Part shown: positions 228-61,105 of the stretch, in pieces
How positions within the stretch are numbered: position 1 is the first letter of the stretch
How the letters are laid out: each line of letters opens with the position of its first letter
Assembly (NCBI GenBank): GCA_035221665.1
Contig: CM069137.1
Location: forward strand, 24,552,001 to 24,616,000
DNA length: 64,000 bases
DNA from: Okamejei kenojei
Taxonomy: Eukaryota
Direction of reading: 5' to 3'
Position numbers and translations under genes: made by a program
Notes under the pieces: generated by a model
Seen by the model: only the letters and a program-made list of their open reading frames with translations
Database searches by the model: none
Told to the model about the DNA's origin: nothing

Positions 228-419
228 TTGTGTAGGACGGAACTGCAGATGCTGGTTTAAACCGAAGATAGACTCAAAAAGCTGGAATAACTCAGCGGGA
301 CAGGCAGCATCTCTGGAGAGAGGGAATGGGTGATGTTTTGGGTCGACCCGAAACGTCACCCATTCTTTCTCTCCAGAGATGCTGCCTGGTCCGCTGATTT
401 ACTCCAGCTTTTTGTGTCT
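228..419. mobile_element. PLE-derived palindromic (hairpin) repeat
   Basis: Inverted arms meet at gggtcgacccg. Perfect 14-bp TSD atcctggttacatt (214-227, 420-433). Confidence 0.75.
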
Positions 420-554
420 ATCCTGGTTACATTATTACATATATCCTGTGGTATCACTAACTTTCATTTTGTTGCAGTCTTCACCAGTTACCACCGCAGC
501 ACAAAGTGGATTGAGAATGTCCAACAAAATTAAGTTTATGCTGAACATTATTTA

Positions 555-925
555 GAGTCATAGAGTTGTACAGAACAGAAATATACCCTTTGGCCCACCT
601 CCTCCATGCCAACTAAAATGTCTATCCAACCAAGTCCCATTTGCTTCTGTGTGAAAAAATTGTCCCTCAGGTCCCTTTTAAATCTTCCCCCTCGCACCTT
701 AAATCTATCTCCTCTAGTTTTAAACTCCCCAATTCTGGGAAAAAGACTGACCGTCCACTTTAACTACATCTCTTGCAAAGTTATGTACTTCTATAAGATT
801 ACCACTCAGACTCAAACGCTCCAGGGGGAAAGTCTCCCAGCCCATCCAGCCTCGCTTTATAATTCAGACACACCATTCCCAGTAACATCCTCATGAATCT
901 TTTCAGCACTTCCCTGTTTAATGAC
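555..925 (-). mobile_element. CR1 (HER1-like) LINE 3' fragment
   Basis: Reverse-strand RT C-terminal region (tgtgaaaaaattgtccctcaggtcccttttaaatcttcccc) and tail gagtcatagag. Confidence 0.75.
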
Positions 926-1589
926 ATAATGATGACAACAGCATTTGATGTTAACTATTTGCCACCATGAACTGGTTTTAAATCCAGAGATGGTCCAAAG
1001 ACTTTCAATCAATATAGAGGTATTATGCGATGTACTCGTGATCGAGAGGACTTAAATCAAGTTATAGTTTGTCTGTGATTGAGAAGACCTAAAACAAGTT
1101 ACTGTATCTCAGTTTACTTGCTTTAAATTTGGTCTGTGGTGAAATGGTACTTGAGAGGTTAAATATGGCTCTTTCATCATACAAGCTCAAAATAACTAAA
1201 ACTTGCTAATGCATAATATTTATAGCTTCCACCTGAGAATTGTATTAATGTTTGTTTAATACAGCTGCCTGCTCTGGAACTACCTGGAATATTAAGATTT
1301 GTAACTGAAGACAATGAGGTAAATGGAAATGGATTGAATCCGTTTATTTGGATGTAAAAATCCCTGATGTAAAAATCTTGCATTTTTACTGCCTGAGGTA
1401 GCATAATTCTTTGAGCACAGTCTAAGCCGGACTTTAGCACCTGCCTTGCTGGTGGTATATCTGCATCACTAACAAATCTATGGTGTTAGACATATATGTG
1501 AACAATAAACCATTAAGTATACACCCTATTTACATCATGAAATGAGTGAGACATAATCCGACGAAGTGAGACGATGTAAGAGATAGCAG

Positions 1590-1900
1590 CAGACTATAAA
1601 AAGGTTTGCTTTAGCCATCAGCTTGTTGCTCTGAAACATTGCAAAAATGATTCACGTTCAGTGAATTGCTTTGTTGTGATGTTGGCAAATGTGGCAGCCA
1701 TTTTACACACATTAGTGTCCTTGTTGCTCTTTGAAATAAGAGTGTTGGCCAGAACACTGGGAGAACTGTGAACTTCTCCTCAGCTAATACCACAAATGTT
1801 CCCCGGAATAGATAATGAACCATCACTGATTGATGGAGAATGATGGAATAATGTGGCTTGTTTTTGAAGGGTAGAGGATATAACGGCTATCTAATGACCT
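1590..1900 (-). mobile_element. Highly diverged DeuSINE remnant
   Basis: ggcaaatgtggcagccattttacacac and tgttggccagaacactgggagaact match the reversed Deu landmarks. Confidence 0.45.
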
Positions 1901-2519
1901 GGAGGAGGTTCCTTTCATTTAAGCGAAAAGCAAACCAAACATTTTGAGTCATAGATTAATACAGCGTGTAAACAGGCACTTTGACCCAACTTGCCCTCAC
2001 AGGCACACAAATTAAACAATATTTTTGGGCCTATTCTATTCCTCAATGGGTTGATACAATAGGATACTCACTGCCGCTACCTATTCAGACCTAAACTGTA
2101 AATGAACCTCAATTAAGTCAGGGATTAGAAATGGACATAGCAAAGGATGCTGCTAACTTTATGTAAGATCTTTCTGTCTCTCATTGAGTTAAGCAAACTA
2201 TAATAGTGGACAGTCCACTTCCACTGGTTCCATGTAATGTAATTAATCTGGACAATTTGAATTGAATGCTTGCCTGCCAGTTCTAATGTGCAAATTGAAT
2301 TGAAATTGCCACCTATCCATCTGCCAAAGGTATAAAAGAAAGCAATTGCCCAGATCATCCTAAACTAATAATTTCCTACACAGATAATGTTCAACTGAGG
2401 ATCCAACAATGTTTATGAGATAAGAACCCTGGCACAGTATGTTCAAAGTCCTAGAGCCAACTATGTAATATCAAAATGATCAATCACTTATTCAAGAAAA
2501 TTTAAAAAATTAAGAAAAC

Positions 2520-5073: not shown

Positions 5074-5098
5074 AAAGAGAGACAGAAAGAGAGTCAGT

Positions 5099-5279: not shown

Positions 5280-6434
5280 ATAAGGTGGTTGAGGCCAGTC
5301 CACCTCCCCTGTCCATAGATGGACAATGCCAGGAATGTCTGCAATGTGTTCTATTTTTGTCGCACCTATGTGTGGCCACCCATCTGGTCTTAATCAATCA
5401 GTCTCATCCCAAAGCTTTGTTAAACTACCAGCTGAAATAATATACTGCTTCATCAGGATACAGCCTGAAGGATGGCGGCTGTGCAAATCCCCAGCCAGAG
5501 CATGTTAATTGTAGTTACATATCTGTGAACCTAGAAGCTAACAGGGAATCAGGGAGAAGGAAGGATTTATGTGATAGTGGTGGTAGTCATGGCTGCACTA
5601 CTTTTAAAACAAAATTTGTCCACACCGTTTCTTAGGCAAAAAAGACGTCTATTCGAGAGGGTGGGTGCCTGCATAGCAATCACCACCTCAACCACCTTTT
5701 TTATGTCTATGTGAGTAGTCTATAGATGGTGGGACTCTTTACTGCTGCCTAGGTAACTGCCTGGGAAGGTTGGAATATCCGGTGACGGAGTTGTGATTGA
5801 GGGTCCTGACACAACCTTTGTTGTACTGAGGTGTTGGATGCACATTCAGACGCACGCTTAGTTAGTTCTCTTCAGTGTACTCCCATCCTTCCTTCTGCTG
5901 TTCTCCCCCACCCCCTTCCACCACTATCCCACCAACCCACCCTCTCTAACACCTCCTGCCAAGGTAACAACACAAGCCAGCTTTTGGGCAGAATCTAATG
6001 CTGACGACTGATGAGAATTTGTCTGAAATTCCATTCACCCAGCGTTTCATGAACATTAGTACGTGTGTGCTGGACAATGAAAGTGCAAGGTATTCTGAGT
6101 GCAAACCACTTATACACTCAGAATATGCACTCACTAAGTGTTCCTTACCCAAAGTGAAAGTATGCAGGAATTCTGCAGTATGTACACAAGCAAGGAGGTG
6201 TCCAAGTTATGTGCAAAAGAGCAAATATATGTGCAAAGAGGGTAAAAGAAAATGTAAGAAAATATTTGAGATGCACATGAATTTGATGAATTTACACTCA
6301 CCTTCATTGTGAATTTTGTCCTCTACAATTTTCAACTGTTCTGGCTGAAGTTAGGAAGACTCTCTAGGCAAATAATACTTGAAGCTTTAGAAACCGCCAG
6401 AGGGGTTTCTAAACATAATTGCACAAAACAAAAA

Positions 6435-6640
6435 TAATTAAGTGCTGGAGCAACTTGGTGGGTCAGGCAGCATCTGTGGAGGGATGGATGGATGACGTTT
6501 CGGGTCGGGATCCTTCTTCAAACCCTTCATCAGTGTGAACATGAGTCTTCCCATTATCCCACTGATACTACCTGACCAATGGAGTTCCTCCAGCAGTTTG
6601 CTTTTTGCTATTCTAACATCTGTAATTCCTTGTGTTTCCA
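6435..6640. mobile_element. PLE-derived palindromic repeat (older copy)
   Basis: gtgctggagcaact..caggcagcatctg..gacgtttcgggtcggga arm and a diverged inverted arm. Confidence 0.6.
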
Positions 6641-7679
6641 TAATTGCATGAAATATTTGTTTTAAAATGTACCTACCAACCCCACCCATCCAATTATCAC
6701 CTCCAAAGAAGGTGCTAAAACATGATACAAGTTATTGCAGTTGTTAGTTGTTATCCCTTAGGACCTTGGCCAATTCACCTCTCTGCATGTGTGAGTCTGT
6801 GCACAGAATGACTTCAAGCTATTCAGCCATTTGTGGGGAGGATGGGGTGAGGATAGGGGGGAGGGGGAGAGGTGATGGTTTCAGAGGGGCAATTCACAAC
6901 TTGCCTTGTTCCTAAACTCAATTGGTGGCCAGATGCACATTCCAAAGGGGGTCACTGCTCAATCAAAAGGCAACAAACCTGTATGGCATTTCTAGCCCAA
7001 GTCCAGAAATGCTGAAAGAATGTGTTGTGTTCTAAACAGCCATCAAATGTCGTTTAGCCATTGCACCTAGGTTTATGCTTGGCCTGATCATTGTTTAGAA
7101 CTTTAAATTAATAACAAAGGAGGCAATTGTTCTTACATATTGCTCTTTAATCCCGTGCATTTTATATACACAAGCTTCTTCGCCTTCCTTCGAAATCTTC
7201 TTGCTATCCCCAATAGTCATGGATTTTTGCTTCATTTGACATCACAAATGTGGATTGCTGCCCACAAACCACAGTCTCTGTCCATGATGTCACCTGAGGA
7301 TGAACTCGCGACAGAATGTCTGCAGTGTGCTAGACTTAAACCAACAGTTTGTAACTTGGTAAAAACCAGGGCGGAAAGGGACCAAGAGGCACCCATATTC
7401 ATACAGGTATCCTCCTTCTAACGTTCCACATTACAGAGTAATCTAATCAAGTGCAATTCTCCTTTATTTGTGGATTTCTTTGCTTTCAAAATTTTTTTTG
7501 CCAACAGAAAAAGCAGCGCTTTTCTATGCAATTTAAGTGCTAGTGGCACGATAGTCTGTTATTATCATGTGTGGGGAATAAAAAGCAATCTATATGTAGC
7601 ATCATAAATTCACCACCAACTGCTGGCAAAGTTATTCCAGCAAAGCAAGAATCAAGAGAGTTCTATTGTTATATGTCAT

Positions 7680-9415: not shown

Positions 9416-9575
9416 GAACAGCAACCCATATTCTGCTTGGGTAGCCTGCAATCCAATGTGTAAGAAGGAACTGCAGATGCTGCTTTACACCGAAGATGGG
9501 CACCGCCTGGCCTTCTGAGTTCTCCAGCACTTTGCCATTTAGCTCAAAAATTCAGAATCCGCAGTCTCTTGATTC
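9416..9575 (+). mobile_element. PLE fragment: GIY-YIG tail remnant plus end-repeat pieces
   Basis: 9416-9457 reads EQQPIFCLGSLQSN, the same motif as 39064; followed by gtaagaaggaactgcagatgctg. Confidence 0.55.
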
Positions 9576-9690
9576 TTCATCAATTCTCCGCTAGTTTACC
9601 TGGAATCCCACTGCAACATCATTGATTTGGAATTACATTTGAGATATTTTTTACTTGTTATAAATGATTGTAGGATAAGCCATTGCCTTT

Positions 9691-9997
9691 GATAGTGGCA
9701 CAGTGTCACAGCTGATAGAGCTGCAGCGCTGGAGGCCTGTGTTCAACAATAACCTCAGGTGCTGTCTATGTGGAGTTTACACATTCTCCCTATGACTGCA
9801 TTGGTCCCCAGCAGGTGCTCCGGTTTCTTCCCACATCCCAAAGTGGTGTGGGGTTGTAGGTTAATTGGCCTCAGTAAATTGTTCTTTATAGGGAGTGGAT
9901 GAGAAAGCGGAAAAAAAAATAGAACTTGTGTGAACAGCAGTCAGTGAGGACTCTGTGGGCGGAAGTGCCTGCTTCCATACCGTACCTCAAAACTAAA
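9691..9997 (+). mobile_element. HE1-type V-SINE
   Basis: tRNA-like head, V-domain (tgtggagtttacacattctccc..ggtttcttcccacatcccaaag), CR1-derived tail ending in taaac. TSD cattgccttt / cattaccttt. Confidence 0.8.
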
Positions 9998-10512
9998 CAT
10001 TACCTTTTACCAACTGAACCAGCTGTGAATGTATGAGACAGCAGTGAATGTGGCCCATGCATCATCAATAGCCTCTGGTTTCTATCAAAAAATGGTTCCT
10101 CTCTAAAATATTTAAGCAGGAAAAAATGCTACCATTTTGTTCACGGTGACAGAGTAACATAATCTGACAAACACAATCCATATGTGACAAAATGACTTTA
10201 TTGTAAAACAATGAGAATCACAAATGGCAGCTCCAGCCTCACAACATAATTTTCTTTTTGAGGGAAAGTTTGCACTTCTTATAATTTGAGATCTCTCCCC
10301 TGTGAAGAAGCAGACAAGTAACTTGACAAGTTGTGATTATTATTCCTTCTCTCGAGTTAGTTGTATTCAAATAAAAAAAAAGATTTCATGGTTCAAATTG
10401 AAGCCAGGTATTGTCGACTACAGTTCAGCATTGGGTTTGTGTAAATGAGGTGCACCTGGGAAGCCAGTACCAGGTCCTCTACGATGTGCTGAGCTGGAGC
10501 GTTGTGGGACAG

Positions 10513-10928
10513 AGCCGGCATAATGGCGCAGCGATAGAGTTGCTGCCTTACAGAGCCAGAGACCCGGGTTCGATCCTGACTACGGGTACTTGTCGGTACG
10601 GAGTTTGTACGTTCTCCCCGTGACCAGCGTGGGTTTTCTCAGGGATCTCCAGTTTCCTCCCATACTCCAAAGACGAACGGATTTGTAGGTTATGTGTAGG
10701 AAGGAATTGCGGATGCTGGTTTACACCGAAGATAGATGCTGGAGTAACTCAACGGGACAAGCAGCATCTCTGGGGAGAAGGAACGGGTGACGTTCCAGGT
10801 CGAGATCCTTCTATAATTGTGAATTGTCTCTAGTGTATGTAGGATAATGTAAGTGTGCCAGGATCACTGGTCGGTGCAGACTCGGTGGGCCAAAGTGCCT
10901 ATTTCAGCGCTGTATCTCTAAACTAAAT
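10513..10928 (+). mobile_element. HE1-type V-SINE interrupted by a PLE-derived repeat (~10694-10813)
   Basis: B-box ggttcgatcc, V-domain, tail gctgtatctctaaactaaa. Confidence 0.85.
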
Positions 10929-11074
10929 TAAGATGCTGCCAATGGCTTATTACTTTACTTAAAACTGTACTTAGAATTTTGCGTTGGGCACATAATAAGT
11001 AGAGACATATCCCATTAAAGGAGCAGACACCACCGTTCTCTGTGTGGAGAAGTCATGAGGCAGTGCTTGCTTTC

Positions 11075-11298
11075 TGGATACAAAAGGAACTGTAGATGCT
11101 GGAATCTTCAGTAAAAGGCAAAATGCTGGAGTAACACAACAGGTCAGGCAGCAGATCTGGAACACATGGATGGGTGATATTTCAGGTTGGGATCCTTCGT
11201 GAGTCTGAGGAAGGATGCCGAATGTAAAGTCGCTTATCTCTGTCCTCCAGAGATGCAGCATGGCCCATTGAGTTACTCCAGCACTTTGTGTTTTACTT
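11075..11298. mobile_element. PLE-derived palindromic repeat
   Basis: aaaggaactgtagatgctggaatc arm and inverted gagatgcagc..gagttactccagcactttgtg arm. Confidence 0.65.
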
Positions 11299-11972: not shown

Positions 11973-12450
11973 CGTGTAGGAAGGAAATGCAGATGCTGGT
12001 ATACGCAGAAGATAGACACAAAAAACTGGAGTAACTCAGCGGGACAGGCAGCATCTCTGGACAGAAGGAATGGGAATTATCCGTCTATGGATACAAGGGT
12101 GGTCACGGTGGCACAGCGGTAGAGTTGCTGCCTTACAGCACTTGCAGCGCCGGAGACCAGGGTTCGATCCTGACTACGGGTGCTGCCTGTACAGAGTTTG
12201 TACGTTCTCCCCATGACCGCGTGGGTTTTCTTTAAGACCTTCGGTTTCCTCCCACACTCCAAAGACGTGCAGGTTTGTAGGTTAATTGGCTTGGTGTATG
12301 TGTAAACTGTCCCTAGTGTGTGTAGGATAGTGTTAATGTGTGGGGATGGCTGGTCGGTGCGGACTCGGTGGGCCAAAGGGCCTGTTTCCACGCTGTATCT
12401 CTAAACTAAACTAAACGAATGGGTGACGTTTCAGATCGAGACCTTTCATT
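11973..12450 (-). mobile_element. PLE-derived repeat split by an HE1 SINE
   Basis: The arm runs to 12074 and resumes at 12417 (gaatggg duplicated) as gtgacgtttcagatcgagaccttt. Confidence 0.7.
12097..12416 (+). mobile_element. Full-length young HE1-type V-SINE
   Basis: A-box tggcacagcgg, B-box ggttcgatcc, V-domain, (ctaaa)n tail. TSD gaatggg. Confidence 0.9.
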
Positions 12451-19400: not shown

Positions 19401-19939
19401 AAAGTTCTGCCCTGGAGAGTTTGTGCTGTCAGTTTCTTTCACCTCAGAAAGCTGCCGCAATCGGTATGTGAGTGAGAAATTATCTAGTTATGGCTGCAGG
19501 CCTGTCTCAGGTCAGATGTGTTAAGCATACATCTGTCCTACTATAGGTGTGCGCATGTGAGCACAGAAGGCTGGAAAACAGTGAGCTCTGTACATATTTA
19601 CTTTGGCTTATCACTGTTCTATCTCAATTGCTGATTTTACCTTATCAAAAGGTAAATAGTTGATTGGCCCATTAAGGCTTCTCAATAGCCACTTGAAAGT
19701 TTTGTTTGTGGAAAGGGTTGGCACCCGATGTCCAATTGAAATTTAACAGCCACTGCAGGTACAGCAAATGTTTTGAGCTTTTGGCCTGTCAATAATGCAG
19801 TAGCAAAGCAATTTAAGATTTTATGCATATTTTAGGAAGCTCTGTCTATGTGTTATGGTTGCACCATCACAATCTATTGATACCTAGGAAGTTCATAATG
19901 CTGCACGGACTTTAATGGCGAAAAGCCAAATTAACAATT

Positions 19940-20128
19940 AAACAAAAAGCTGGAGTAACTCAGCGGGACAGGCAGCATCTCTGGAGAGAAGGAATGGGTG
20001 ATGTTTTGGGTCGACCTGAAACGTCACCCATTCCTCCTCTGCAGAGTTGCTGCCTGTCCTGCTGAGTTACTCCAGCTTTTTGTGTCTATCTTCGGTTCAA
20101 ACCAACATCTGCAGTTCCTTCCTACATA
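19940..20128. mobile_element. PLE-derived palindromic repeat
   Basis: About 80-bp inverted arms centred on gggtcgacctg; tail catctgcagttccttcctaca. Confidence 0.72.
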
Positions 20129-38732: not shown

Positions 38733-38963
38733 GAGAACAGCAGCGTGCCAGTGAAACTATATAGAAGGGTAAGAAAGTTTTGAAACTCCTTGGTAGGCAG
38801 AATTTAAAACCAGTTGACTATGACATTAAGAGAAAAGGGGAAGAGGCTTTGGAGAGGCAATGTGGTTGGATGGGAAAGTTGAAGATTATGCATTTTCTGT
38901 CATAGAAGAAAAATAGATCAAAGCAGCAAAATACTCTTTCAAACCGTTCTATTATGATCTATA

Positions 38964-40699: not shown

Positions 40700-40915
40700 A
40701 CTCTAAAAAACAATTATTTTTCTTTATCATTGTTCTTTATCTCTCCACGTCACCGTCTATATCTCTCGTTTCCCTGGTCCCTGACCAGTCTGAAGAAGGG
40801 TCTCGACCCGAAACGTCGCCTATCTCCTTCGCTCCTTAGATGCTGCTGCACCCGCTGAGTTTCTCCAGCTTTTTGTGTAACCCTCGATTCTCCAGCATCT
40901 GCAGTTCCTTCTTTA
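40700..40915 (+). mobile_element. Young PLE-derived 3' end
   Basis: CpGs retained; intact hammerhead motif; tail ccagcatctgcagttccttctt. Confidence 0.72.
40790..40817 (+). ncRNA. Minimal type-I hammerhead ribozyme motif within a PLE-derived repeat
   Basis: CUGAAGA-A-[GGGUC uc GACCC]-GAAA-C-GUC: intact catalytic core, perfect 5-bp stem II, palindromic ACGU in place of stem III. Stem I is very short (about 2 bp). Activity unknown. Confidence 0.6.
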
Positions 40916-41111
40916 ATCCATTCTCTATGAATCTGTTCAGCGTATGTCACCCAGAAAAAACTCTTCTTAATGTACCATTGGTACAAAAGTGTAAGTACTG
41001 AATATAATGGCCAAGATCCTCAAAGCAGCCATGGAATACAATATGCTGCCCTCCTAAAATAGGTTTAATTTGCAAAATTTAAGAATTAGTCCTCAAACAT
41101 GTAGATTGAGT

Positions 41112-41197
41112 GAAGGGTCTCGACCCGAAACGTCGCCTATCTCCTTCGCTCCTTAGATGCTGCTGCACCCGCTGAGTTTCTCCAGCTTTTTGTGTAC
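41112..41197 (+). repeat. 85-bp exact copy of 40795-40879 (plus 1 nt) flanked by a 12-bp direct repeat
   Basis: tgtagattgagt at 41100-41111 and 41198-41209. Confidence 0.85.
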
Positions 41198-42400
41198 TGT
41201 AGATTGAGTAGTATTTGCAGACTGGCCAATCTGCGGACCCAGGCTAAAATGGAAGCTTTTGTGACGGAAAGGTTTTCTGTTCACTTTGGATGCATATTGT
41301 GCCAGTTTAATTTGACCCCATTGGCTCGGTACCACATTAAAGGTGGATTTCCTCACCTAGAGGCTGCTGATCAAGGTCTCTGGAACGTACAGTATGTATT
41401 CACAAGCAAAGATGACAAGGGATGGCCCTCAAATGAATTAAAATGCCAACTTTTTGCTGCTATGGGGAGCAATATAATGAGAATTTCTACAAATGTTGGC
41501 TACCAATGACAGTTTTAATCTGACTGGTTTGGCTCATCACACTTATTTCATACAGCTGTCCAAATGATCATGTAAGAGCACTGCTATTGAGATATTATGA
41601 TTCAGACAATCTAATACCTGTTTTGATGATTGCCAGCAATTGAGAAATAGCAATTTCAGGATTCACCTAGTCCAGGCTTCCAGAGGAAGTGATTATTTCC
41701 AATTGTGCATTTTTATGGTAGGTCAGACCATATTTTGGATCACGTCACTTTGGTAGTGACCATTGCGTTTTGACTTTGTAGCCTGGATACATTAACCAGT
41801 ACTCTCAAACAAAGAACCTGCATTAAATAGTTCTCAAAAAGAATGCAAAATAACCTTGAATAATTCAGATTGATTTCCATCTGTATGTCACTGATATTCC
41901 GATTTTTCCAGTAAAGTAAAATAAATCTGAGGGAAAATATGCTAGGAGCATTCATAATTTTAATTAGGTATTGTGTTACAGGATTTTTTAGTAAAGCAAA
42001 GGCTGGCAACAGCAAAATTTTGAGTCCTACAGTTCTCATTTAGTTTACATGGTAAAAGGAAGCAACTGCTATTAAATTACTTTGAAACATTCTTTACTTA
42101 TAACTCAAGCTGTGTGGAACTGTGTTGTGTTGAAACAGTGTTCAACATATGCTTGATGTGTTAGCATTTAAATTAGTCTTTACTAAATATATATTTAGCA
42201 AGTGGATTGAATTTGAAGCATGAGGTTAAAGATATTCGCAGTAGTGCATTTATGGGGTGCTACAAATGAATAATTGAAAATGTAAGTTACCTTATTATTT
42301 TCACTGCTTAGTGTATGAGATACCAAAGGAAAAGGGTCTGTTCATGCCATTCCAATGGAATTTTTACTACCCTGTCACCAGCAAGTTATATGCTATATTA

Positions 42401-42715: not shown

Positions 42716-43885
42716 ACTCTTCCGCTATTTCCCTCTCACCTCTCCCTCCGCCTTCTTCATTCCCCCCCTTTCTTCGTCTGCCCATCCTGTCGACGCACTA
42801 TTGTGATATTGCTAATTTTATTCCCTGGGTTGTTATCATTATTTGATAATGTGGTCACCCATTTGAAAAGTAAACACGGTTTAAAATATGTATAACATGC
42901 TCTAAATGCTTCAGTGTACAGTTCTCAACAATTCTTACACTCCTTTATTCCCTAGCACGATGGAAGCACTAAAGATCTGCCAAATGTTCACATCTCAGAT
43001 GATGTAGTGGGGAGGTACTCCCAACTAACAGGGGACTTTGCACATGCGAAAACATTTAGGCCTCCGCTGCAAGAGAAAGGAAGCCGATAGCAGTGCAGTG
43101 TGACTATCTGCCTGACTTTTGCCACACCCTGCGTTAGACTGATGAGCACCAGTTTACTGCCCACGTCAGCAGATTCCAGTACCTGAGAGATAGGGTTCAG
43201 CAGGCTGCTGATGGCATCGGGCCATACAGGCCTCCCAGAACAGCTGAAACTAACAGGAAAGGGATTGGAATCTGAATGCCGTATGAGGCCAGGCTTCAGA
43301 GAAAGGCCACAGATAAGTGTTTTGACTTTTGAGCAGTTACATCCACAGCAGACGGATTGTAGCGCCCGTTCAATGTGTTATGTTGAATCCTCAAGCCAGT
43401 ACTTCAGTCATGTCTTCCAGGATGGTGCAGAAACATTTGGGGAAGCTGGAAAAATATGTTTATTGGGGCCAGATGGGAGAAAAGATACAGCAAGTGTGTG
43501 AAGGCTAATGAGGGTGAGGTGAAAGCCACTAGGACAAAGGTAAGCTTGACTATTTACCCAGGTGGAGAAAGAGTATTTATTCCTTAAAAGGAAAATAAAA
43601 GCTGCAAGAAGTCCAACAGAATAAAAGGCGGATCATGTAGCGCCTTCTCCCAAAATGACACAAGGTCTTATTACAGCAGATCAAGATGCTGATATTGGAT
43701 ACTTAGCCTGAATTAAACTCAAGCAAATAACCGATCGCATGTTCTCTTCAACGGGACATATGTAAGTGAAATAAATGGGAATAATATCAAGCTTTCCGTC
43801 CCAATTCACACCAGGTGAACTATTTTGAGAACTTTAATGTTTGATTTGTTTGCAAATGGAGCAGACTGACATACCACATAAATAG

Positions 43886-44407
43886 TGTAGAAACAAGGCA
43901 CAGCAGATGCTGGTTTGCACAAAAGGACACAAAGTGCTAGAGTAACTCAGCAGGTCAGGCAGCAACTCTGGAGAACATGGATAGGTGGTGTGTCTGGTCG
44001 GGACCCTTCTTCAGAGTGTGGAGTCTGAAGAAGGTTCCAAACCCAAAACATCACCTATCCATCTTCTCCACAGATGCTGCCTGGCCCACTAACTTATAAC
44101 CATATAACCATATAACAATTACAGCACGGAAACAGGCCCTCTCGGCCCTTCCAGTCCGTGCCGACCATTTGTTTTCCCCTAGTCCCATCTACCTGCACTC
44201 AGACCATACCCTCCATTCCCTTCACGTCTATATACCTATCCACTTTTCTTTTAAATGTTAAAAACGATCCTGCCTCCACCACTTCTGCTGGAAGCTCATT
44301 CCACACAGCCACCACCCTCTGAGTAAAGAAGTTCCCCCTCACGTTACCCCTAAACGTCTGTCCCTTAATTCTCATGTCAACTTCCTCCAACACTTTGTGT
44401 CCTTTTC
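43886..44407. mobile_element. PLE-derived palindromic repeat interrupted by a CR1 3' end
   Basis: Arms meet near 44014-44025. Diverged 16-bp TSD ccacataaatagtgta (43874-89) / ccacagaaatcgtata (44408-23). Confidence 0.7.
44096..44378 (-). mobile_element. Young CR1 (HER1-like) 3' end
   Basis: ORF RGNFFTQRVVAVWNELPAEVVEAGS..FKR.VDRY; TSD aactt (44091-95, 44379-83). Confidence 0.88.
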
Positions 44408-45376
44408 CCACAGAAATCGTATATTGATTCTGTATTCTTATGCAGACGGTGGGCTCCATTTTGCTTGACATACAAAAATTCTGCAATTCCACATGATTTC
44501 ACAGTTCATATATTGAGGTGTATTTACACAACGATAGCCCTCACGAGCGCAAACGGCATGGCTGTGGCAGTATAAACTACACGGGGTAAGTTCATTGATC
44601 CCATTCTTTTCAGCAAGATGCTGTACTTGACAAGTCTCTGAGCTACAATATCCAATGCCACTTTTCCAGCATTTTCTCCTTTCAGTGTGAGATCAATGTA
44701 CGTAATAGGTGGCCCAAAAGTAATTTTTTTGGCCCGTGTACATACTTTGTAATGATTAGATTGTGTGAAATACCGCAAGCAAGTCAGCTGATGCACATAC
44801 TCAGTCCTTCTTCGTGTAGGAACTGGGAATATATATAAGGTTAGTAATTGTTCTTTGTCCGTTTGTCCCGGAATAGTCTGCCTTATTCCAATGCCCTGTG
44901 TATATTCTGATGGAATCGGTCACGTTTGCATTAAAACAGTTATTGTGATAGTTTGGGTCTGGCCCATGTTGCCTGATACATTGAGCCACTGAACCAATGA
45001 AATGGTTCAAGAGACAAAGCTCATACCATTAACACATTTCAAAGTCATGAATTGAAACTCCAGTCTGCTCTTTTCAAAATTCTTGATGGCATGGCAACAA
45101 AGAAGCAAGCAAGTGTTTTACGTTGCGAACTGTATAGACTTCTCTTTGAGGCTGCGGTAATTGTGCAGAGGCGTGCAGAGTGTATATGTATGGTGTATGT
45201 GTGCCTTTGTGTGCCTGTGTGAGTATGTGTGTGCATGCGCATCAACATGTGTGGGTGGGTGCATGCATCTATAAATCGATAGGAAATTAAAATGCATGTT
45301 AGAATAATGAAATCGATATGTATATAAGGTGTTAAAAGAGAGAGTTATAGAGTCATACAGCACGGAAACAGGTCAT

Positions 45377-45532
45377 AGACACAAAATGTTGGAGTAACTC
45401 AGCAGGACAGGCAGCAGATCGATCCGAAACGTCACCCATTTCCTTTATCCATAGATGGTGCCTGTCCCGCTGAGTTACTCAAGCATTTTGTGTCTATTTT
45501 TGGTTTAAACCAGCATCTGCAGTTTCTTCCTC
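45377..45532. mobile_element. PLE-derived repeat inserted into a CR1/HE1-type tail (45340-45610)
   Basis: TSD cacggaaacaggtcat (45361-76) / cacagaaacaggtcat (45533-48). Confidence 0.72.
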
Positions 45533-46456
45533 CACAGAAACAGGTCATTTGGCCCAACTTGCCCATGCTGATTAAGATGCCCCCACTGTGCTTGTCCCAC
45601 CTGCCTGCAAATCTAATAACCTTAGCTGTTATTACAATGTACACTCGTTAAGCATGAAAACATTTCAAGATTGGATTTACATGTTTGAACCCAAAAGTTT
45701 CAACTAATTGAATACTAATATCACTTAAAAGTTATTTTAAAATTACCTCCTGATGCTTTAGGAAATACATGCAAGAGGCCATCATTTAAATTATAATGCT
45801 AAGATATCTGGAGACACACCTTGCAGTCAATCATAGTGTTCCAACCAAGATCAAATTTGAACCATCTGGGTCTTTTTTTGTTACAACTGTGCTGCCATTG
45901 CCCCAGTTAATCATGACCTGATGATTTGTGAGGTACAATTAAGTATTTGATGAATAAATATTCTGTGGCATGAGAAATGCTTACACGTGATTTACAAATA
46001 AATCTATGGTGAGAATGTTCAGCATCAAATTTGAACCAGAAACTAACTTGGAGGTAGCAAATGGCAAGTTGAACCGTGAATGTAGTCTGGTTGGTTGCTT
46101 ACTTCTTCTGAATGTTTTTTTTCTTCCCATACCTGTTCAAAATCTGCCAGCTTTCCTCCTGTTTGCACCAGTGTATCGAGGGGAGGAGTTCAACAAAAAT
46201 ACTGATTAAATTATGCATGGGAGCAGATAAGATACTTAATTTAGTCACTGCCTTTTTTTAAAAAGCCGTAGGAAGCTAAAAAGAGACCTTTATTTTCTAA
46301 AAAGAAATTGGCCCCTTTGTGACAGCAAAGTACCAGCTTGCACACAGGCGAAACTGTAACAATTTTATATTCTCGACGTTTTGTGTGTATTTGGTTAGTT
46401 ACAGTAATTATGCCCAATAACTGACAGCCGAAATCGCGTAGGGAAAGGCAGACTGC

Positions 46457-50375: not shown

Positions 50376-50482
50376 CTCAATACCTCTTCCTGAGAATGAC
50401 TTTTGATCATATAGTTACACCAGCACTCAGACCACCTGGTTCTCACACTGAACACCATTGTGGTCTGAAGTTGCCTCCATTT

Positions 50483-50650
50483 ATGTAAGAAGGAACTGCA
50501 GATGCTTGTTTACACCGAAGATTGACACAAAATGCTGGAGTAACTCAATGGGTCAGGCAGCATCTCTGGAGAAAAGGAGTAGGTGATGTTTCGGGTCGAG
50601 AACCTTACAGCCTAATGAAGGGTCTGACCCGAAACGTCACCATCTCTCTT
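50483..50650. mobile_element. PLE-derived palindromic repeat with a short right arm
   Basis: gtaagaaggaactgcagatgc..tttcgggtcgag | ctaatgaagggtctgacccgaaacgtcac. Confidence 0.68.
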
Positions 50651-51082: not shown

Positions 51083-51545
51083 TGGAGACACAAGAAACTG
51101 CAGATGCTGGAATCCTGAGCAAAAAGCAAATAACTGGAAGAACTCAGCAGGTCAGGCAGCATCTGCGGAAGGAAAGGACAGATGACGTTTCGGGCTGGGG
51201 ACCTTCTTCAGATTGATGAAGTAGGAGGGAGAAAACTGGTAAAGAGATGGTTGGGTCGGGCAAAGACTGAAAGTGGTAGGTGGTTGCAGATGAGGGGGGC
51301 TGATTGGCAGATGGATACAGTAGGTGACAAAGGCTAAAGGTGAAAAGGAGACACAAGGATATCAGATAAGGTAAGAAGGGTCTCGACCCGAAACGTTGCC
51401 CATTTCCTTCGCTCCATAGATGCTGCCTCACCCGCTGAGTTTCTCCAGCATTTTTGCCTACCTTCGATTTTCCAGCATCTGCAGTTCCTTCTTAATTAAC
51501 CAGGTAAGAAGAAGTGGTGAGTGATACAAAAAATACAAAAGGGAG
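51083..51545 (-). mobile_element. PLE 3' region (minus) with a younger plus-strand PLE end nested at 51379-51501
   Basis: Minus-strand hammerhead core at 51184-51211. Nested copy flanked by aggtaagaag (51369-78, 51502-11). Confidence 0.7.
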
Positions 51546-54500: not shown

Positions 54501-55672
54501 ACTTGGCTAAACCCTTGTGGTCACACCTCTTTGAAAAGGTTTTGTTTCGTCCGTCAATTGGTATTCAAACCAGGTCAGCATTTCTGTTTGCCCAACTTTG
54601 CTGCCGTTTTCATTTTAATTTGCACCTGTTGTGCAGTTGTTGGAAAGGCAAGTGCAGACCCGCGGATTGTACAAAGATCATATTATGAGAAGATATGCAC
54701 GGTGCAATCTTTTTGTCTGACTGATGTCGTTTTTAAGATTTTTCTTTAACGGTACTTTTCAAAGGATTAAAATTGAACTACAAACCTTACAAAAAGCTGC
54801 CGATATCATAGCCTGGAGTTGTTAGCTGAATAGATTTCATCGTCGAACAAATTCATGAGAGCAGAACGCTAAACCTGATACAAGCGAAATTCTGCTCCTG
54901 CCACTCTGTATAATCTGGTCGCTGGCAAGAGCCTGCTCGAGATAGTTCAGTAGATAAAACCAAAGGATTTCTCGATTGAGAGCAAAGAAATCAAAATGAG
55001 CCTGTAGAGAGTTGTGATGTTTTTCTTGGTTCTTCTTCCCATGATGTCATATAACTGAGCTGTTCTGTTGTGAGCATGTGTATTTGCATGCAAGTATGTC
55101 CATTTGTGTTTCCCATGAGCTGAGTTAAACAGTTTCTGGCAGTGTTGTGTCTGCATATGTGCATCTGATGGTATGTTTCGCTAGCTAAACTAATGCCCCT
55201 GTGTTTATTACTCTAATCTTTCTTGTCGAGTGGCAAAGTGGACAATTTATGTACTACCATGCACACTGAATGACTGGGAAGGAAGACTAATGCAGAAGCA
55301 GCCACCTTCAATTCAGTTCAAAGACCTTATTTATAAACTGTCCATTTTAAGGAATGCTAGTGCGAGTGCATCAGGTCTGTGTAGCAAAATAAACTGGTTT
55401 ATTTCGTTCCTGATTTGTTCTGACATTTGAAACATGTTTTGAAGCATAATCTGCATGTTTTGTCAGTGTTCTCAAAAAAACGTAAAGTGGAGGGACTGCT
55501 GTGGCAGCTTGGGTGAAGGAATTCATTAAAAAAAAGTTAAGACATGGTCAGGTCTGGAAGAATGTAAGAACTGTGCAGCTTGTTGTACCTTGCTTCTTGA
55601 AAAGCTATGGTTTTGTCCACCTTTTCTTTTTTTTAACTCCAGCATCTCCATTACTCCTTTTCTCCGCTACAG

Positions 55673-55930
55673 TTTTGAACTATGAGAATGTAGTGGACAC
55701 GGGTTCGGAAACAGACGATGAAGACAAGCTTCACATTGCGGAAGAAGACAGTATTATGAACGCCCTGGACCGCGACTCCAGTCCAGTGACTATGCCCAAC
55801 CACGATTCTTCCCCACATGGGAACCAAATATTGTTGCCAAGAGAAGACGAAGAAAGTGAAAAGAGAGATTGCGGCATGAACCACACCTGGCACAGCAGGG
55901 AGACACTACCAGTCTCAATGGATGGAACTG
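55673..55930 (+). CDS. ZEB2: ZEB2 (zinc finger E-box-binding homeobox 2) internal coding exon, equivalent to human exon 3
   Basis: Pyrimidine tract plus acceptor (ttactccttttctccgctacAG, 55651-55672) and donor G|GTAAGT at 55930/55931. Length 258 bp, phase 1-1. Encodes (V)[85 protein letters not shown], collinear with human ZEB2 [25 protein letters not shown]...SSPH..ALLPREEE..HPWH..SVDG. ZEB1 has VTNYNTVVETNSDSDD here instead. Confidence 0.95.
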
Positions 55931-56500
55931 GTAAGTCAAACGTCTGGACTAAGAATAGGACCGCTACTCAAAAAATGTTTTCAAATACCTGTTGTTGGCC
56001 TTCCACAAAATACTTCATTCCAATTCATCTGACTCAACGTGTGGGTTAAACAGTGGAATGAACTACACATTTTTAAAGCTTGTAATATTACTTGTTAAGT
56101 CAACCACTGTTATATATTAAACAAGTGACACCCTTTAGAAGCCAATGCAACTTTGTAAACCAAAGGTTAAACTCATAAAAGGCCCCTGTTATCAGTTTTA
56201 TGGATCTTTCACTTACCTTGTGTTGAATTTAATTAAAGAAAAACATTGGGGAGTAGTGCAGATGTAATTATTGTTTAATTATAGGTAAATAATATCACTT
56301 CATCATCCTTTCTAAGGGCTATTGTCCCCATAAAATGACATTAAAAAAACTCCACTAATATCCCCTGTCAATCAAAGAGCTACATGCTCTAATATCTAGA
56401 GTTGAGAGTGGAATATCCACTAAAACTGTTTAAAATATAATCTCAGATTACAACTCCAGCTGTGGTCGACATACCTTAATATCAAATGTTAAAAAGTGCT

Positions 56501-56798: not shown

Positions 56799-58004
56799 AT
56801 ATGCTTTTATTACCATTTATTCCATACTTAAAATGTTATTATATAGGTCATAGTTGACGCATGTCTGCTATGCCATGCTTGGTGTCACAGAGCAGATCAA
56901 ATTAAACATAGGCATATGCTAAATTCACCCCACATTTTGATTGTAACATTCATAAAGTCATAGAATTGTCATGGTACAGAAGAAAACCTTCTAGCCATTA
57001 GGTCCTTGTACTGCCAGACTCTTTCCTTGGTCTTTCTGGACAGTTCTGCAAATTATTTTCCCTCGTTCTTCTCCAATTCTCATTTGAAATCCTAAGTGAG
57101 TCTGTGCCCATCAGCCTTGCAGGCAGTGAATTATAAATTATATCAACTCTGTTTAAGAAAGTCTTTCTTCACTTGCACCCTACCTTTCGCTCACCTTTTA
57201 AAAATATGTATTACTTGGCCACTTGAACCATCTGCTACAGGAGTTGGCTTGGAGGAACAGCTGAGCCAAGTTCAAGAGCTGAATCAGAACAATTGTCACA
57301 ATAGATGCAAACTCTGTTCATATCTGTAACTGTTAAACTTAGCTTCATTGCGTAATGCAATTTGGCTAGCCCTCCTGCTGTTAGCATTGTCTTATAAAAT
57401 TATTCTTTAAAAGCATGCACATTTTGGGGATTCTTTAACACGTGGTACTTTAACATCTTTAATGATTTGCTTGCGAACACACTTTTGATGAAGGGAAAGA
57501 TGGACATAAAATAGCTGAGCATGCTATCAAACTGCTGAGAGTGATTGACTTGAAGGTAAATTGGGTGTAATTTGTTAGTTTGGCCTGAGTGAGGAGAGAT
57601 GCGGTGAAGTAATAACATTGGATAAGCCCCTCATCACAAAAGCTGCTCTTCTGCACACTGTTAGAAAAAATATAATGCTGTTACAGGAAAATCGCTTACT
57701 TGCTAAAAAATCTGTCATGTTTCATGGTAAAAGGTAATGGTACAGTTCGTGATGAGTCAGAAGACACATTTTCGCACATAGAATTTACAGAACAGAAAAC
57801 ACCATTCCAGGTACCAGTCTCCGCTCTATCAAGCTTCTTCCACTATAAATGGTTCTTTCCACTCTACCACATTGTCACATATAAAGACCACATTGCTATA
57901 TTCATCAAACATTACACCTATTACAGTATCCTCTCTCACTAATAATCATCTCCGCTACTTGTCACATTCTCTTTCCCTGTACACCTGCTTCCCATAGAGA
58001 CATA

Positions 58005-59597
58005 CCGTGGCTTGCAAACGTTTTCATACCCCTTGAAGTTTTCCACATTGTGTCACGTTATAACCACAAACGTAAATGTATTTTATTGGGATTTTATGTG
58101 ATAGACCAACTCAAAATGGCGCATAATTGTGAAGTGGAAGGAAAATGATACATGGTTTTCACATTTTTTACAAATAAAAAACTGAAAAGTGTGGCGTTCA
58201 AAAGTATTCAGCCCCCTTTACTCGGATACGCCTAAATAAAATCCAGTGCAACCAATTGCCTTCAGAAGTCACCTAATTAGTAAATAGAGTCCACTTGTGT
58301 GTAATCTAATCTCAGTATAAATACAGCTGTTCTGTGAAGGCCTCAGAGGTTTGTTAGAGAACATTAGTGAACAAACAGCATCATGAAGCCCAAGGAACAC
58401 ACCAGACAGGTCAGGGATAAAGTTGTGGTGAAGTTTAAAGCATGGTTAGATTATAAAAAATATCCCAAGCTTTGAACATCTCATGGAGCACTGTTCAATC
58501 CATCATCCAAAAATGGAAAGAGTATTGCACAACTGCAAACCTACCAAGACATGACCGTCCACCTAAACTGACAGGCTGGGCAAGGAGAGTATTGATCAGA
58601 GAAGCAGCCAAGAGGCCCATGGTAACTCTGGAGGAGCTGCAGAGATCCACAGCTCAGGCGGGTGAATCTGTCCACAGGACAACTATTAGTCGTGCACTCC
58701 ACAGATCGAGCCTTTATGGAAGAGTGGCAAGAAAGCCATTGTTGAAACAAAGCCATAAGAAGTCCCGTTTGCAGTTTGCCACAAGCCATGTGGGGGCACA
58801 GCAAACATGTGGAGGAAGGTGCTCTGGTCTGATGAGACCAAAATTGAGGTTTTTGGCCTAAATGCAAAACGCTATGTGTGGAGGAAAACTAACACTGCAC
58901 ATCACCCTGAACACACCATCCCCACCGTGAAACATGGTGGTGGCAGCATCATGCTATGGGGATGCTTTTCTTCAGCAGGGACAGGGAAGCTGGTTAGAGT
59001 TGACGGGAAGATGCATGGAGCCAAATACAGGGCAATCTTGGAAGAAAACCTGTTAGAGTCTGCAAAAGACTTGAGACTGGAGCAGAGTTTCACCTTCCAG
59101 CAGGACAACGACCCTAAACATACAGCCAGAGCTACAATGGAATGGTTTAGATCAAAGCATATTCATGTGTTAGAATGGCCCAGTCAGTCCAGACCTAAAT
59201 CCAATTGAGAATCTCTGGCAAGACTTAAAAATTGCTGTTCACAGACGCTCTCCATTCATTCTGACTGAGCTTGAGCTATTTTGCAAAAAAGAATGGGCAC
59301 AAATTTCAGTCTCTAGATGTACAAAGCTGGTAGAGACATACCCCAAAAGACCTGCAGCTGTAATTGCACAAAGTCTTGACTGAGGGGGGCTGAATACTTT
59401 TGCACGCCACACTTTTCAGTTTTTTATTTGTAATAAAATTTGGAAACTATGTATCATTTTCCTTCCACTTAACAATTATGCACCACTTTGTGTTGGTCTA
59501 TCACATAAAATCCCAATAAAATACATTTACGTTTGTGGTTGTAACGTGACAAAATGTGGAAAAGTTCAAGGGGTATGAATACTTTTGCAAGCCACTG
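58005..59597 (+). mobile_element. Full-length Tc1/mariner DNA transposon, Passport-like, IR/DR type
   Basis: TA on both sides (58003-4, 59598-9). About 212-bp inverted repeats (58005-58216 and 59385-59597), each with outer and inner direct repeats (cagtggcttgcaaaagtattcatacccc / gtgtggcgtgcaaaagtattcagccccc). Internal transposase remnant. Confidence 0.95.
58383..59380 (+). pseudogene. Frameshifted Tc1-family DD34E transposase
   Basis: MKPKEHTRQVRDKVV..; paired-like HTH segment (STVQSIIQKWKEY..TANLPR..RPPKL); RVARKPLL; WSDETKIE; TVKHGGGSIMLWGCF; FQQDNDPKH; WPSQS(PDLNPIENLW). Frameshifts near 58460, 58797 and 59187 and a small deletion near the C-terminus. Confidence 0.93.
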
Positions 59598-59740
59598 TAG
59601 ATAATACTGATACAGCATGGAAACAGGCCCTTCGACCCATCTTACCCACGCTGACCAAGATGTCCCATCTACACTAGTCCAACCTGTCTACCTTTATTTA
59701 TCCTCAAATTCTCTTTCTCTCTTTCTCTGTACCATACAAT

Positions 59741-60052
59741 CACAGATAAATACAGCATGGAAAGAGTTCCCTACGGCTCACTGAGCCCACGTGGACCATC
59801 AACCATCCATAATGTACTAATCATACATTAATCCGATTTTTTATTCACCCCACATTCCCAGCAACGTACTGAAATGTACTGCGGGCAGTTTGCAAACATA
59901 CTGGGGAAATCTACCGACCCGATCTTTGGGATGAGGTAGGTAACCCACGTGATCACTGGGAGAATATGCAAACTCCATACAAACAGGACCTGAAATCAGG
60001 ACAAAACTGGCCTCTGACGTTGTGAGACATAAGCTACACTAACTGTGCCACC
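59741..60052 (-). mobile_element. Diverged HE1-type V-SINE
   Basis: tacagcatggaaag..gggagaatatgcaaactccatac..aactgtgccacc. Confidence 0.7.
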
Positions 60053-60979
60053 TTCTCTGCTCCTCTCTGTTCTCATTGCTCCACTTCAGGACAACAGGCT
60101 GATGACTTGTGGATAGTTGCCATTTGACAGGGAAGGTCGTGGTCAATGTCTTTAGTGTGAAGTTTTTGTTTTGTAAGGTGGAGTCTGGGCATGGAAACTA
60201 AGCTGTAGTTCAGATGTGACAGGCATTTAGATAGCATTTCAAATTGCCTATGGACTACTGGATTCGCAGGTTATGCATGGACACAGGTGGGTGGCAATAA
60301 CTACAGGTCATGTATTAGGGAGAGAATACGAAATAAACACTCAATGAAACATCCACATGGGAGCTCTGAAAGGTAAGTATAATGCCACATGTACAAGACC
60401 CACTGCTTAAACTCTTGACACCTTGTCATGGCAAATGACATATCAGCCAGAATCATAAAACCTGAAGTAAGTGTGACACAAACAGGAATCTAAACTTTAA
60501 AAATGAAGCAGATAAATCATGGTGATTGTAAGAGGTAGGTGGCATTAAGCACCATGATAAGGTTACAGTATATGTCTCAACGTCCTTTCTGCTTATATAT
60601 ATATAAATAATGATTTGCAGGGGCTCACAAATGTTTCCTGTCTGGTTCATTGCCTCTGACACATTGGGTGAGTTCAAGATGCTGTAGATAATGCCATCTT
60701 TGTCATTTTGTCTACTTGAACCATTTAATCTTAGGACAATTGTTATGCCATCACCATTCAATGATATATATCCACTTGGAGCTGTGAGGCTTCAGACAAC
60801 CCTGATCCTATTTCTTAATTCATGGTCTATCAAAATCAATGGAAAGTAAAATCTGATTGACCAGGAAGATCCCAAAGAGAATCACCCAGGACATCACAAT
60901 TCAAATCCCTGGGTAGGAATGAAAGTCACATGTATCAGCTTTTGACTTCCAGTGATTTCAGAGAGCAAGGACATAATTC

Positions 60980-61105
60980 TTAGCCTGCTGCAGGTCTTGG
61001 CCCGAAAAGCCGACAAATCATTTCTCCCAACAGATACTGCTCAACCCGCTGAGTTCTTCCAACACATTGTTTTTAGCTCTGGATTACAGCATTTGCAGTC
61101 TCTTC
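60980..61105 (+). mobile_element. Diverged PLE-derived 3' end
   Basis: ggtcttggcccgaaaagc..cccgctgagttcttccaac..cagcatttgcagtc. Confidence 0.5.

Follow-up and report, generated by a model that had tools for sequence, protein, structure and literature searches.

An abundant short repeat in the genome of the skate Okamejei kenojei is the terminal repeat of an autonomous Penelope-like element (PLE) of the Neptune/Nematis type, ~4 kb in length, that encodes a reverse transcriptase (RT) and a GIY-YIG endonuclease (EN). The repeat was noted in a 64,000-nucleotide stretch of contig CM069137.1 (assembly GCA_035221665.1, positions 24,552,001 to 24,616,000; hereafter the window), and an original prediction made from that stretch took it for a mostly non-coding, hammerhead-bearing, retrozyme-like family of PLE origin. 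The ends of its copies point to a different account, which we consider quite probable: the short copies, or stubs, would be dead-end copies of the front of the PLE, primed at either of two internal sites, which lie ~95 and ~130 nt inside the 5′ end of the RNA, and ended where the RT runs off just before the hammerhead motif, and would not be a separate, ribozyme-driven family.

Results

The repeat belongs to an autonomous Penelope-like element

Throughout, repeat coordinates take C3 of the hammerhead box as 0 (window position 40790 in the best copy), so that the predicted cut lies between +27 and +28. The PLE origin proposed at the outset was borne out when the genome was searched and the repeat extended 5′, which recovered an element with both RT and GIY-YIG domains. 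In particular, the 28-nt core of the repeat lies 1,289–1,400 nt downstream of the motif YLRYIDD in 19 of 20 loci picked by their RT, and an inverted core lies upstream of the RT in 7 of these 20; among the first 30 loci picked by their core, 13 have a GIY-YIG C terminus 180–400 nt upstream of it. A 140-amino-acid piece of the RT gave 31,594 first-look candidates genome-wide, 150 of which were scored. One copy retains an open frame of 778 amino acids in which DKG, YLRYIDD and GIY-YIG motifs can be recognized by eye. Translated copies carry a C-x4-C-x2-C linker between RT and EN, and a CX2-5CxxC linker characterizes Neptune and Nematis (PMC8557442; this and the other papers cited here are drawn on from part of their text). 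The element scores 19–19.8 bits against the Pfam GIY-YIG profile, under the 22.6 cut-off, and its protein relatives carry Pfam matches to RT and GIY-YIG; the best named relatives are from whale shark, a stingray, bamboo shark and zebra shark (59–63%), which agrees with a skate host, and there are further ones in gar and corals.

One RT-picked locus (L085) is a seamless partial tandem with a unit of 3,956 nt, which gives the order of the element as stop codon, ~270-nt 3′ untranslated region (UTR), core, site 1, 35-nt tail, site 2, ~40 nt and first ATG, where sites 1 and 2 are the two 3′ end points described below. This ATG, the first of the open reading frame (ORF; L085:3365–3380), overlaps a good 5′ splice-donor match, AAG/GTATG, and the next ~400 codons are proline-rich; the leader may hold an intron, as those of other PLEs do.

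In the 2.76-Gb assembly there are 48,215 exact copies of the core (0 for a reversed control), and the 290 arms found in 78 evenly chosen 10-kb stretches extrapolate to ~1.0 million arms genome-wide, in agreement with the very high copy number originally claimed. As a sample of young arms we used the first 100 of 45,589 genomic matches to a youngest-subfamily anchor at +41 to +69, all of which were recovered; because the anchor sits 3′ of the cut site, their 5′ ends were not preselected. Older subfamilies were represented by an independent random sample (262 arms for 5′ ends), with a library of long copies whose incompleteness can inflate counts at -7 to -4 but not the modes at -3 and -2. Subfamilies were compared using 393 arms in 12 clusters, 2–21% diverged, with only clusters of at least 8 members being compared.

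3′ ends define two sites separated by the PLE tail

The 3′ ends of the 100 young arms fall into two groups 35 nt apart, with 64 at +87 to +94 (site 1) and 36 at +114 to +131 (site 2). The gap between these end points is the PLE tail; in an anole PLE the tail lies between two internal RT start sites, and both sites, together with use of an uncut template, have been demonstrated in vitro (PMC11167929). The asymmetry of the arms noted in the original prediction is this known PLE tail. Target-site duplications (TSDs) of at least 9 nt flank 24 of 59 young solo arms, with a mode of 14, compared with 0 of 295 shuffled flank pairs. The TSDs are therefore long, as had been claimed, but not freely variable, since those of young copies centre on 13–16 nt.

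5′ ends pile up just ahead of the hammerhead motif

Among the young arms, 53 of 100 begin at -7 to +4, and 26 are spread over -1517 to -151, a density of 4.4 ends per base in the peak versus 0.02 in the far-upstream range. None of the 100 begins at +28, the end expected of a cleavage product, a result that speaks only for templates that were copied. When the 60 arms scored as solo (one is really a hairpin partner) are taken alone, the peak contains 34 starts and the far-upstream range 22, with 3 in between, one at +6 and none between +7 and +41. Consistent with these findings, 93 of 262 arms of older subfamilies start at -7 to +4, with modes at -3 and -2, and 3 of 262 at +27 to +29. Exact patterns genome-wide gave 3,580 starts at -3, 1,751 at +2 and 285 at +28, in ratios that are approximate since the patterns differ in span; at 30 loci checked for each, the start was not a simple point change in 30 (-3), 29 (+2) and 20 (+28, the other 10 being point mutants).

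A second, small cluster of 5′ ends lies at -41 to -56 (L346, L358, L357, L363, L365 and L366), where a further initiator-like word, within a pyrimidine-rich stretch, has its A at -43. The depth of RNA contigs (4 runs) drops steeply past site 2 and toward the ORF; we did not use it, depth being no measure of copy number.

Hairpins join one tailed and one tailless arm

An inverted partner accompanies 40 of the 100 young arms, making 27 distinct pairs. In 24 of these hairpins one arm ends at site 1 and the other at site 2; a single hairpin has both arms ending at site 2, no hairpin has both at site 1, and in two the partner ends at +59 or +79. With one passive duplicate among the 24 discounted, the two sites are combined in 23 of the 24 pairs that are independent and classifiable (p = 1.5e-6). 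The tailless arm extends farther 5′ in 16 of 21 untied independent pairs, and in 13 versus 3 when only differences of at least 10 nt are counted; an arm folding back on its own cDNA could not produce this longer reach. Fold-back self-priming, as proposed in PMC3846280, is ruled out for most hairpins because a tailless cDNA cannot template a tailed arm. Two markers are common to both arms in 21 of 24 and 20 of 22 pairs, which fits a single template for both arms, although conversion between arms would give the same result. Twin priming with strand displacement fits these hairpins, and the anole PLE protein is reported to cut and extend both strands (PMC11167929).

Hairpin junctions are private to each locus; only two recur, with shared flanks, and the idea that these are mobile hairpins was abandoned when both proved to be passengers inside other elements. 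One is a stub with a private 37-nt junction that lies within a short, presumably hAT-like DNA transposon, which has terminal inverted repeats and an 8-bp TSD, and has been passively amplified with it (L279, L282 and L284; also L247 and L020). The other is nested near the end of an element of >1.7 kb, on the opposite strand, in copies 93–98% alike (L292, L294, L298, L306 and L307; 5 of 30 loci in the sample); the part that carries it is probably the 5′ UTR of a young long interspersed nuclear element.

Tandem units restart at the same coordinate

Only 198 exact matches read through site 2 into the leader, compared with 45,589 matches to the anchor. We mapped 46 distinct read-through loci. At 29 of the 46, not counting two lookalike loci that had been fragmented by BLAST, a unit ending at site 1 or site 2 is preceded, head to tail, by a unit that ends mostly at +185 to +295 (at +484 to +577 in four of the 29), and these jump junctions often carry a few extra or A-rich bases. 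At 18 of the 29 loci the two passes stop no more than 5 nt apart, and at none does the later pass overshoot the earlier by more than 8 nt. At loci whose earlier pass stopped off the 5′ peak, the passes agree to within 1 nt in 6 of 16 cases (permutation p = 1e-5), namely at -42/-43, -49/-49, -47/-47, +38/+39, +42/+42 and -226/-227. At two loci (L370 and L371) the landing point or the linker changes between passes while the start remains constant. The simplest reading of these data is that the 5′ edge would be the physical end of the RNA, from which the RT runs off before jumping back onto the same RNA and reaching that end once more. Successive units would not share a coordinate after deletion within a tandem, and a circle could not change junctions as in L370 and L371.

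The read-through loci include arrays of 2–5 units of 190–485 bp with a hammerhead motif in each unit (L368, C5:32.949 Mb; L369, C7:91.77 Mb; L370, L371 and L363). By the sequence definition given in bioRxiv 10.64898/2026.07.22.740005, the arrays of L368–L371 would count as non-LTR (long terminal repeat) retrozymes. With a 485-bp unit that includes the full upstream UTR, L369 is the best natural candidate for a newborn retrozyme. A-rich linkers stand at jump landings at +194, +211, +283 (twice) and +484 (L352, L359, L370, L384 and L348), and could be copies of the oligo(A) tails of short transcripts that had ended prematurely.

The hammerhead motif is almost invariant and shows no covariation

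The best-preserved copy in the window carries CUGAnGA, one extra base, a 4-bp stem II, GAAA, a palindromic ACGU and GUC. The minimal type-I hammerhead originally described is thus present, with its core boxes, the extra base after A9, G10.1-C11.1 and the palindromic stem III. A minimal hammerhead descriptor taken from PMC4209133 found 35 matches in the random sample and window together, versus 1–3 in each of five shuffles; it gave no second hammerhead family on which the initiator spacing described below could be examined. Helix I is only 2 bp, short of the 4–5 bp expected for a PLE minimal hammerhead. A search for stem II covariation across subfamilies, suggested in the original prediction, came out negative, as the number of pairs changed on both sides was reached by 42 of 500 shuffles. 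Rfam returned no hammerhead family down to E = 1 and only sub-threshold hairpin matches, folding stability was unremarkable (z = -0.6, -1.1 and +0.3), and RNAalifold on 15 natural copies yielded one 4-bp stem without covariation and did not recover stem II. A hand-drawn four-helix model, although 89.6% paired, was not above shuffles, and a predicted pairing of tail and core was dropped, not being kept in older subfamilies.

Among subfamily clusters, the core varies in 3 of 28 columns and the preceding five bases in 1 of 5, compared with 29 of 65 and 21 of 36 columns downstream; farther upstream the sequence differs wholly between subfamilies. Helix I pairing accounts for -2 and -1 only. Invariance without covariation fits a constraint on the DNA sequence better than one on the fold alone.

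Core-promoter-like motifs overlap the hammerhead

With A(-3) taken as +1, the sequence matches the Drosophila initiator (Inr) at 5 of 6 positions (6 of 6 in most older clusters), the revised motif ten element (MTE), CGANC, at 5 of 5 (+18 to +22), the original MTE at 8 of 10, and the DPE, or downstream core promoter element, at 4 of 5 (+28 to +32), with consensus and spacing from PMC5580651. None of the other 16 of the 17 registers comes close. CGANC at +18 trails 9 of 1,996 other Inr-like sites and is expected in 0.4% of random hammerheads of the same size. The Penelope element of D. virilis has an internal Inr/DPE promoter (PMC2377424). We regard it as likely that the 5′ edge is a transcription start site, and functional use of the MTE- and DPE-like motifs as conceivable but somewhat doubtful. 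Our literature searches, which left subscription papers and Repbase outside, found no account of promoter motifs within a PLE hammerhead or of arrays born by RT jumps.

Copies in the window

A profile search of the window found 35 arms between 225 and 61114, which mechanical grouping resolves into 25 insertions, 15 solo and 10 head-to-head (Table 1); the repeat had been recognized correctly and its count, about 20 copies, put slightly too low. The 28-nt core is exact at one place and present with up to 5 mismatches at 9. All four TSDs listed in the original prediction exist, those of 14 nt (214/420), 12 nt (41100/41198) and 10 nt (51369/51502) being exact and that of 16 nt (45361/45533) having one mismatch. 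An automatic search found credible TSDs of at least 8 nt at only 5 of the 25 insertions (a sixth match was a self-match), because most window copies are old. The junction of the 225-422 insertion falls in the stem II loop. Both proposed GIY-YIG C-terminal remnants translate as claimed. The one at 39064 was said to abut a copy of the repeat; it adjoins an inverted arm, and its own core lies ~480 nt downstream at 39614, past a 3′ UTR that contains a nested hairpin.

Table 1. Copies and sequence features of the Penelope-like element in the window
Feature	Position	Strand	Remarks
Head-to-head insertion 225-422 with 14-nt TSD (214-227 / 420-433)	214-433		Minus arm with tail (site 2), plus arm to site 1
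Solo arms, other	2620-61114		At 2620, 10690, 11973, 12414, 28654, 29512, 29624, 49196, 51082 and 60985
Head-to-head insertion, old	6425-6642		10-nt TSD
GIY-YIG C-terminal remnant (9416-9460)	9416-9580	+	Interrupted by arms 9453-9503 (-) and 9488-9580 (+)
Head-to-head insertion, old	11074-11298		Site 2 arm and site 1 arm
Head-to-head insertion	19939-20131		Site 1 arm and site 2 arm
Head-to-head insertion	32075-32300		Joint just 5′ of both cores
Compound canonical PLE stump	38955-39735		Inverted arm 38955-39063; GIY-YIG C terminus 39064-39138 (+); 3′ UTR with nested hairpin 39175-39337; own core and tail 39608-39735 (+)
Best window copy, youngest subfamily	40728-40915	+	Last ~60 nt of 3′ UTR, core, site 1 at ~40879-40883, tail to site 2 at ~40915
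Initiator-like hexamer	40785-40790	+	Its A, 40787 (-3 from hammerhead C3), is the putative RNA start, at the 5′-end pile-up
Minimal type-I hammerhead motif	40790-40817	+	Predicted cut after 40817
MTE-like CGANC (40804-40808, +18 to +22) and DPE-like 4/5 match (40814-40818, +28 to +32)	40804-40818	+	Inside hammerhead; putative function
Solo stub to site 1	41100-41209	+	12-nt TSD
Head-to-head insertion	43884-44095		Joint just 5′ of both cores, plus arm shortened
Head-to-head insertion	45361-45548		Short minus arm to site 1, plus arm to site 2; 16-nt TSD with one mismatch
Head-to-head insertion	50479-50647		Plus arm shortened
Solo stub to site 2	51369-51511	+	10-nt TSD

The window also holds a second dispersed family with a tRNA-like head (9724-9878, 10512-10936, 12106-12419, 38403-38737 and 63548-63877), which we take to resemble the elasmobranch HE1 short interspersed nuclear element (SINE); the PLE arms at 10690 and 12414 lie in or beside copies of it. 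An exon-like peptide within a 187-amino-acid frame at ~55660-55940 (+) is presumably ZEB2-like, in which case the window would be intronic DNA of that gene. An inverted repeat of 179 nt (58003-58181 / 59421-59599; 89% complementary, 1.24 kb apart) is unrelated to the PLE arms.

Discussion

The ends of the copies suggest the following mechanism. The RT would prime at either internal site and run off the 5′ end of the RNA just ahead of the hammerhead, an end that would be a polymerase II start set by an internal Inr, MTE and DPE promoter overlapping the ribozyme. Hairpins would arise by twin priming, the two nicked target strands priming at different sites and, in most cases, on a single template. 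After run-off the RT would sometimes jump to +185 to +295, giving short hammerhead tandems, or to the homologous 3′ repeat in a strong-stop transfer, giving long copies and seamless partial tandems; long copies could stem from the homologous jump, from read-through RNA or from a ligated circle. Template jumping of the R2 type, twin priming as in L1 and strong-stop transfer in retroviruses are known processes. The hammerhead at the 5′ end, with its 2-bp helix I, would stay uncut, and the stubs would be dead ends because they are without sequence downstream of the priming sites. An anole PLE needs RNA ~55 nt past its priming sites (PMC11167929), which the stubs do not have, and the same may hold for the skate element.

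More tentatively, and with less expectation that all of it holds, the hammerhead could be dual-coded. As DNA it would be a TFIID-type internal promoter (Inr, MTE and DPE) that fixes its length and sequence; as RNA it would escape cleavage at the 5′ end, and only the downstream copy would be cut, with a terminal redundancy of ~30 nt as the result. Strong-stop cDNA would then jump to the 3′ repeat, the million stubs would be failed transfers, and mis-jumps would produce retrozyme-like arrays in a single insertion event.

Several observations weigh against the run-off and promoter account. The peak of 5′ ends spans 12 nt and is double-humped (-4 to -1 and +2). There is no extra G of the kind expected from copying a cap: a single G separates the TSD from the start in only one of nine TSD-resolved starts at -3, and the base that precedes -3 is G in 36 and A in 42 of 100. 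Among 11 copies that extend >1 kb into the ORF, starts at +2 and +90 occur once each and the other nine continue seamlessly for at least 224 nt upstream, while one further full-length unit (L090) starts at about -4 behind an inverted arm. The MTE and DPE consensus motifs come from Drosophila, and in vertebrates they are rare or undefined (PMC5580651). The register match was noticed after the fact, the second part of the revised MTE (CGG at +27 to +29) matches at one of three bases, and a minor variant (4 of 100 arms) retains stem II pairing and breaks CGANC. Stem II, as noted above, lacks covariation. The 100-arm sample covers 5 Mb of one chromosome and one subfamily, and includes three passively duplicated loci. 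Lastly, the same bases can be read as a pyrimidine tract plus CAG, that is, as a 3′ splice site.

This last point leads to the strongest alternative, in which the element is the same but the pile-up of 5′ ends reflects RNA processing or a block to the RT by proteins bound to the pyrimidine tract and CAG, with long copies made from read-through RNA or from cut-and-ligated circular RNA. The UTRs of all sampled subfamilies end in a pyrimidine run, nearly all followed by CAG, and the intron of the D. virilis element ends at helix I (PMC4209133). The missing cap G and the nine ORF-length copies that cross the site would also be accommodated, as would the identical junctions repeated 2–4 times in L368 and L369, which a circle would give. 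A site-specific block, however, cannot yield restarts at the same coordinate at -42, -47, -49, -226, +38 and +42, and no circle can change its landing point or linker between passes, as L370 and L371 do. In addition, the flanks of copies that start at -1 share no upstream exon, and GT..AG was seen in 0 of the 15 joints shown, of 78. We therefore regard this alternative as unlikely.

Much less probable, and largely refuted, is the view of the original prediction that the short copies form a non-autonomous lineage of their own, resembling SINEs or retrozymes, with its own transcription and remobilization. Their fixed 5′ and 3′ ends do make a discrete 95- or 130-bp unit, they outnumber long copies among solos (34 versus 22 of 60), each would hold its own promoter if the promoter is internal, and arrays of 2–5 retrozyme-like units exist. 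Markers, which could have separated such a lineage, speak mostly the other way: the three commonest states occur in long and short arms alike (18/43, 6/18 and 1/5, long/short, in a small sample), and a stem II variant found in 4 short and 0 long young arms is present in long copies of the random sample, although another marker leans to short arms (19/62 versus 3/25, p = 0.10). The short copies are colinear with the autonomous element, share its ORF-linked variants, and are solo or inverted, not tandem; read-through copies are scarce beside anchor matches, hairpin junctions vary by locus with the two recurrent ones riding inside other mobile elements, and the stubs are without the ~55 nt beyond the priming sites on which the anole PLE depends. 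In comparing UTR type with downstream type we saw no clean per-copy chimeras; the youngest subfamily has a distal UTR in common with clusters 3 and 6 and a downstream part like that of cluster 2, one possible old crossover that we did not use as evidence.

That the hairpins are miniature inverted-repeat transposable elements (MITEs), non-autonomous DNA transposons, which the original prediction had already rejected, is refuted: despite ~200-bp near-perfect inverted repeats and a high copy number, they have TSDs of 8–25 nt centred on 14, unequal arms and variable junctions, and the repeat is mostly solo and continuous with the RT ORF.

In its minimal hammerhead motif, its optional tail of 35 nt, its inverted arm and its TSDs of ~14 bp, the skate element follows the published layout of PLEs. 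EN-containing Neptune and Nematis elements (PMC8557442 and PMC3846280) share with the skate element the RT with C-terminal GIY-YIG, the CX2-5CxxC linker, partial tandems, an adjacent inverted 5′-truncated copy, a one-sided 30–40-bp tail, TSDs of ~9–16 nt and solo pseudo-LTRs (pLTRs). The skate element differs in its extreme copy number (~1 million arms, by extrapolation) and in that more than half of its young copies are stubs with a sharp 5′ edge. In those papers self-priming is held to explain inverted junctions, and recombination to explain solo pLTRs; in the skate, twin priming is favoured by the pairing of site 1 with site 2 and by the longer tailless arm, and stubs flanked by TSDs are primary insertions. 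Our literature searches for descriptions of skate or shark PLEs yielded nothing specific.

The Anolis Poseidon element PAc (PMC11167929) likewise has two internal RT start sites bounding a tail, an uncut RNA template and a hammerhead near the start of the ORF. Unlike in PAc, the skate hammerhead and both sites lie in a leader of ~165 nt ahead of the first ATG; the part of that paper drawn on here describes no mapped RNA 5′ end, run-off stubs or jump arrays. The hammerhead motif has the CUGAnGA / GAAA / UH boxes, extra base after A9, G10.1-C11.1 and palindromic 15.2-16.2 of other metazoan PLE minimal hammerheads, which also occur mostly as single copies, some on opposite strands (PMC4209133). 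That paper stresses long, highly variable, covarying stems, whereas the 4-bp skate stem II is almost invariant over 2–21% divergence; the 2-bp helix I resembles that of D. virilis. The D. virilis element also has a TATA-less internal promoter with Inr and DPE in its pLTR (PMC2377424), but its intron begins 46 nt past the start and its hammerhead lies at the intron end, whereas the skate motifs would overlap the hammerhead itself.

Animal non-LTR retrozymes (PMC7229834; bioRxiv 10.64898/2026.07.22.740005) are likewise PLE-derived and carry a type-I hammerhead. In the skate only a small minority of loci are tandem arrays of 190–485 bp with a motif in each unit, and the bulk of copies, unlike retrozymes, are solo or inverted and have no canonical hammerhead; tandem arrays of 170–400-nt units, the typical retrozyme form, occur only among the 198 read-through matches. 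The bioRxiv study suggests that retrozymes are born by local amplification after insertion, whereas the skate arrays look as though they were born at insertion through repeated RT jumps.

As a family, the skate element is one more PLE with the published layout. At ~130 bp for each of ~1 million arms it makes up some 4–5% of the genome, which matters mainly for annotation; as the original prediction warned, the repeat is easily misfiled, whether as a MITE, a SINE or, given weak Rfam microRNA matches, a microRNA hairpin. Its value lies in the fossil record of its copy ends. PLE integration, the formation of tandems and inversions, and the role of the weak hammerhead are open questions in the papers drawn on here. 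The copy ends predict a capped start at -3 or +2 and promoter elements within the ribozyme, and an RT that jumps more than once on the same RNA would provide a one-step route to the birth of retrozyme-like arrays.

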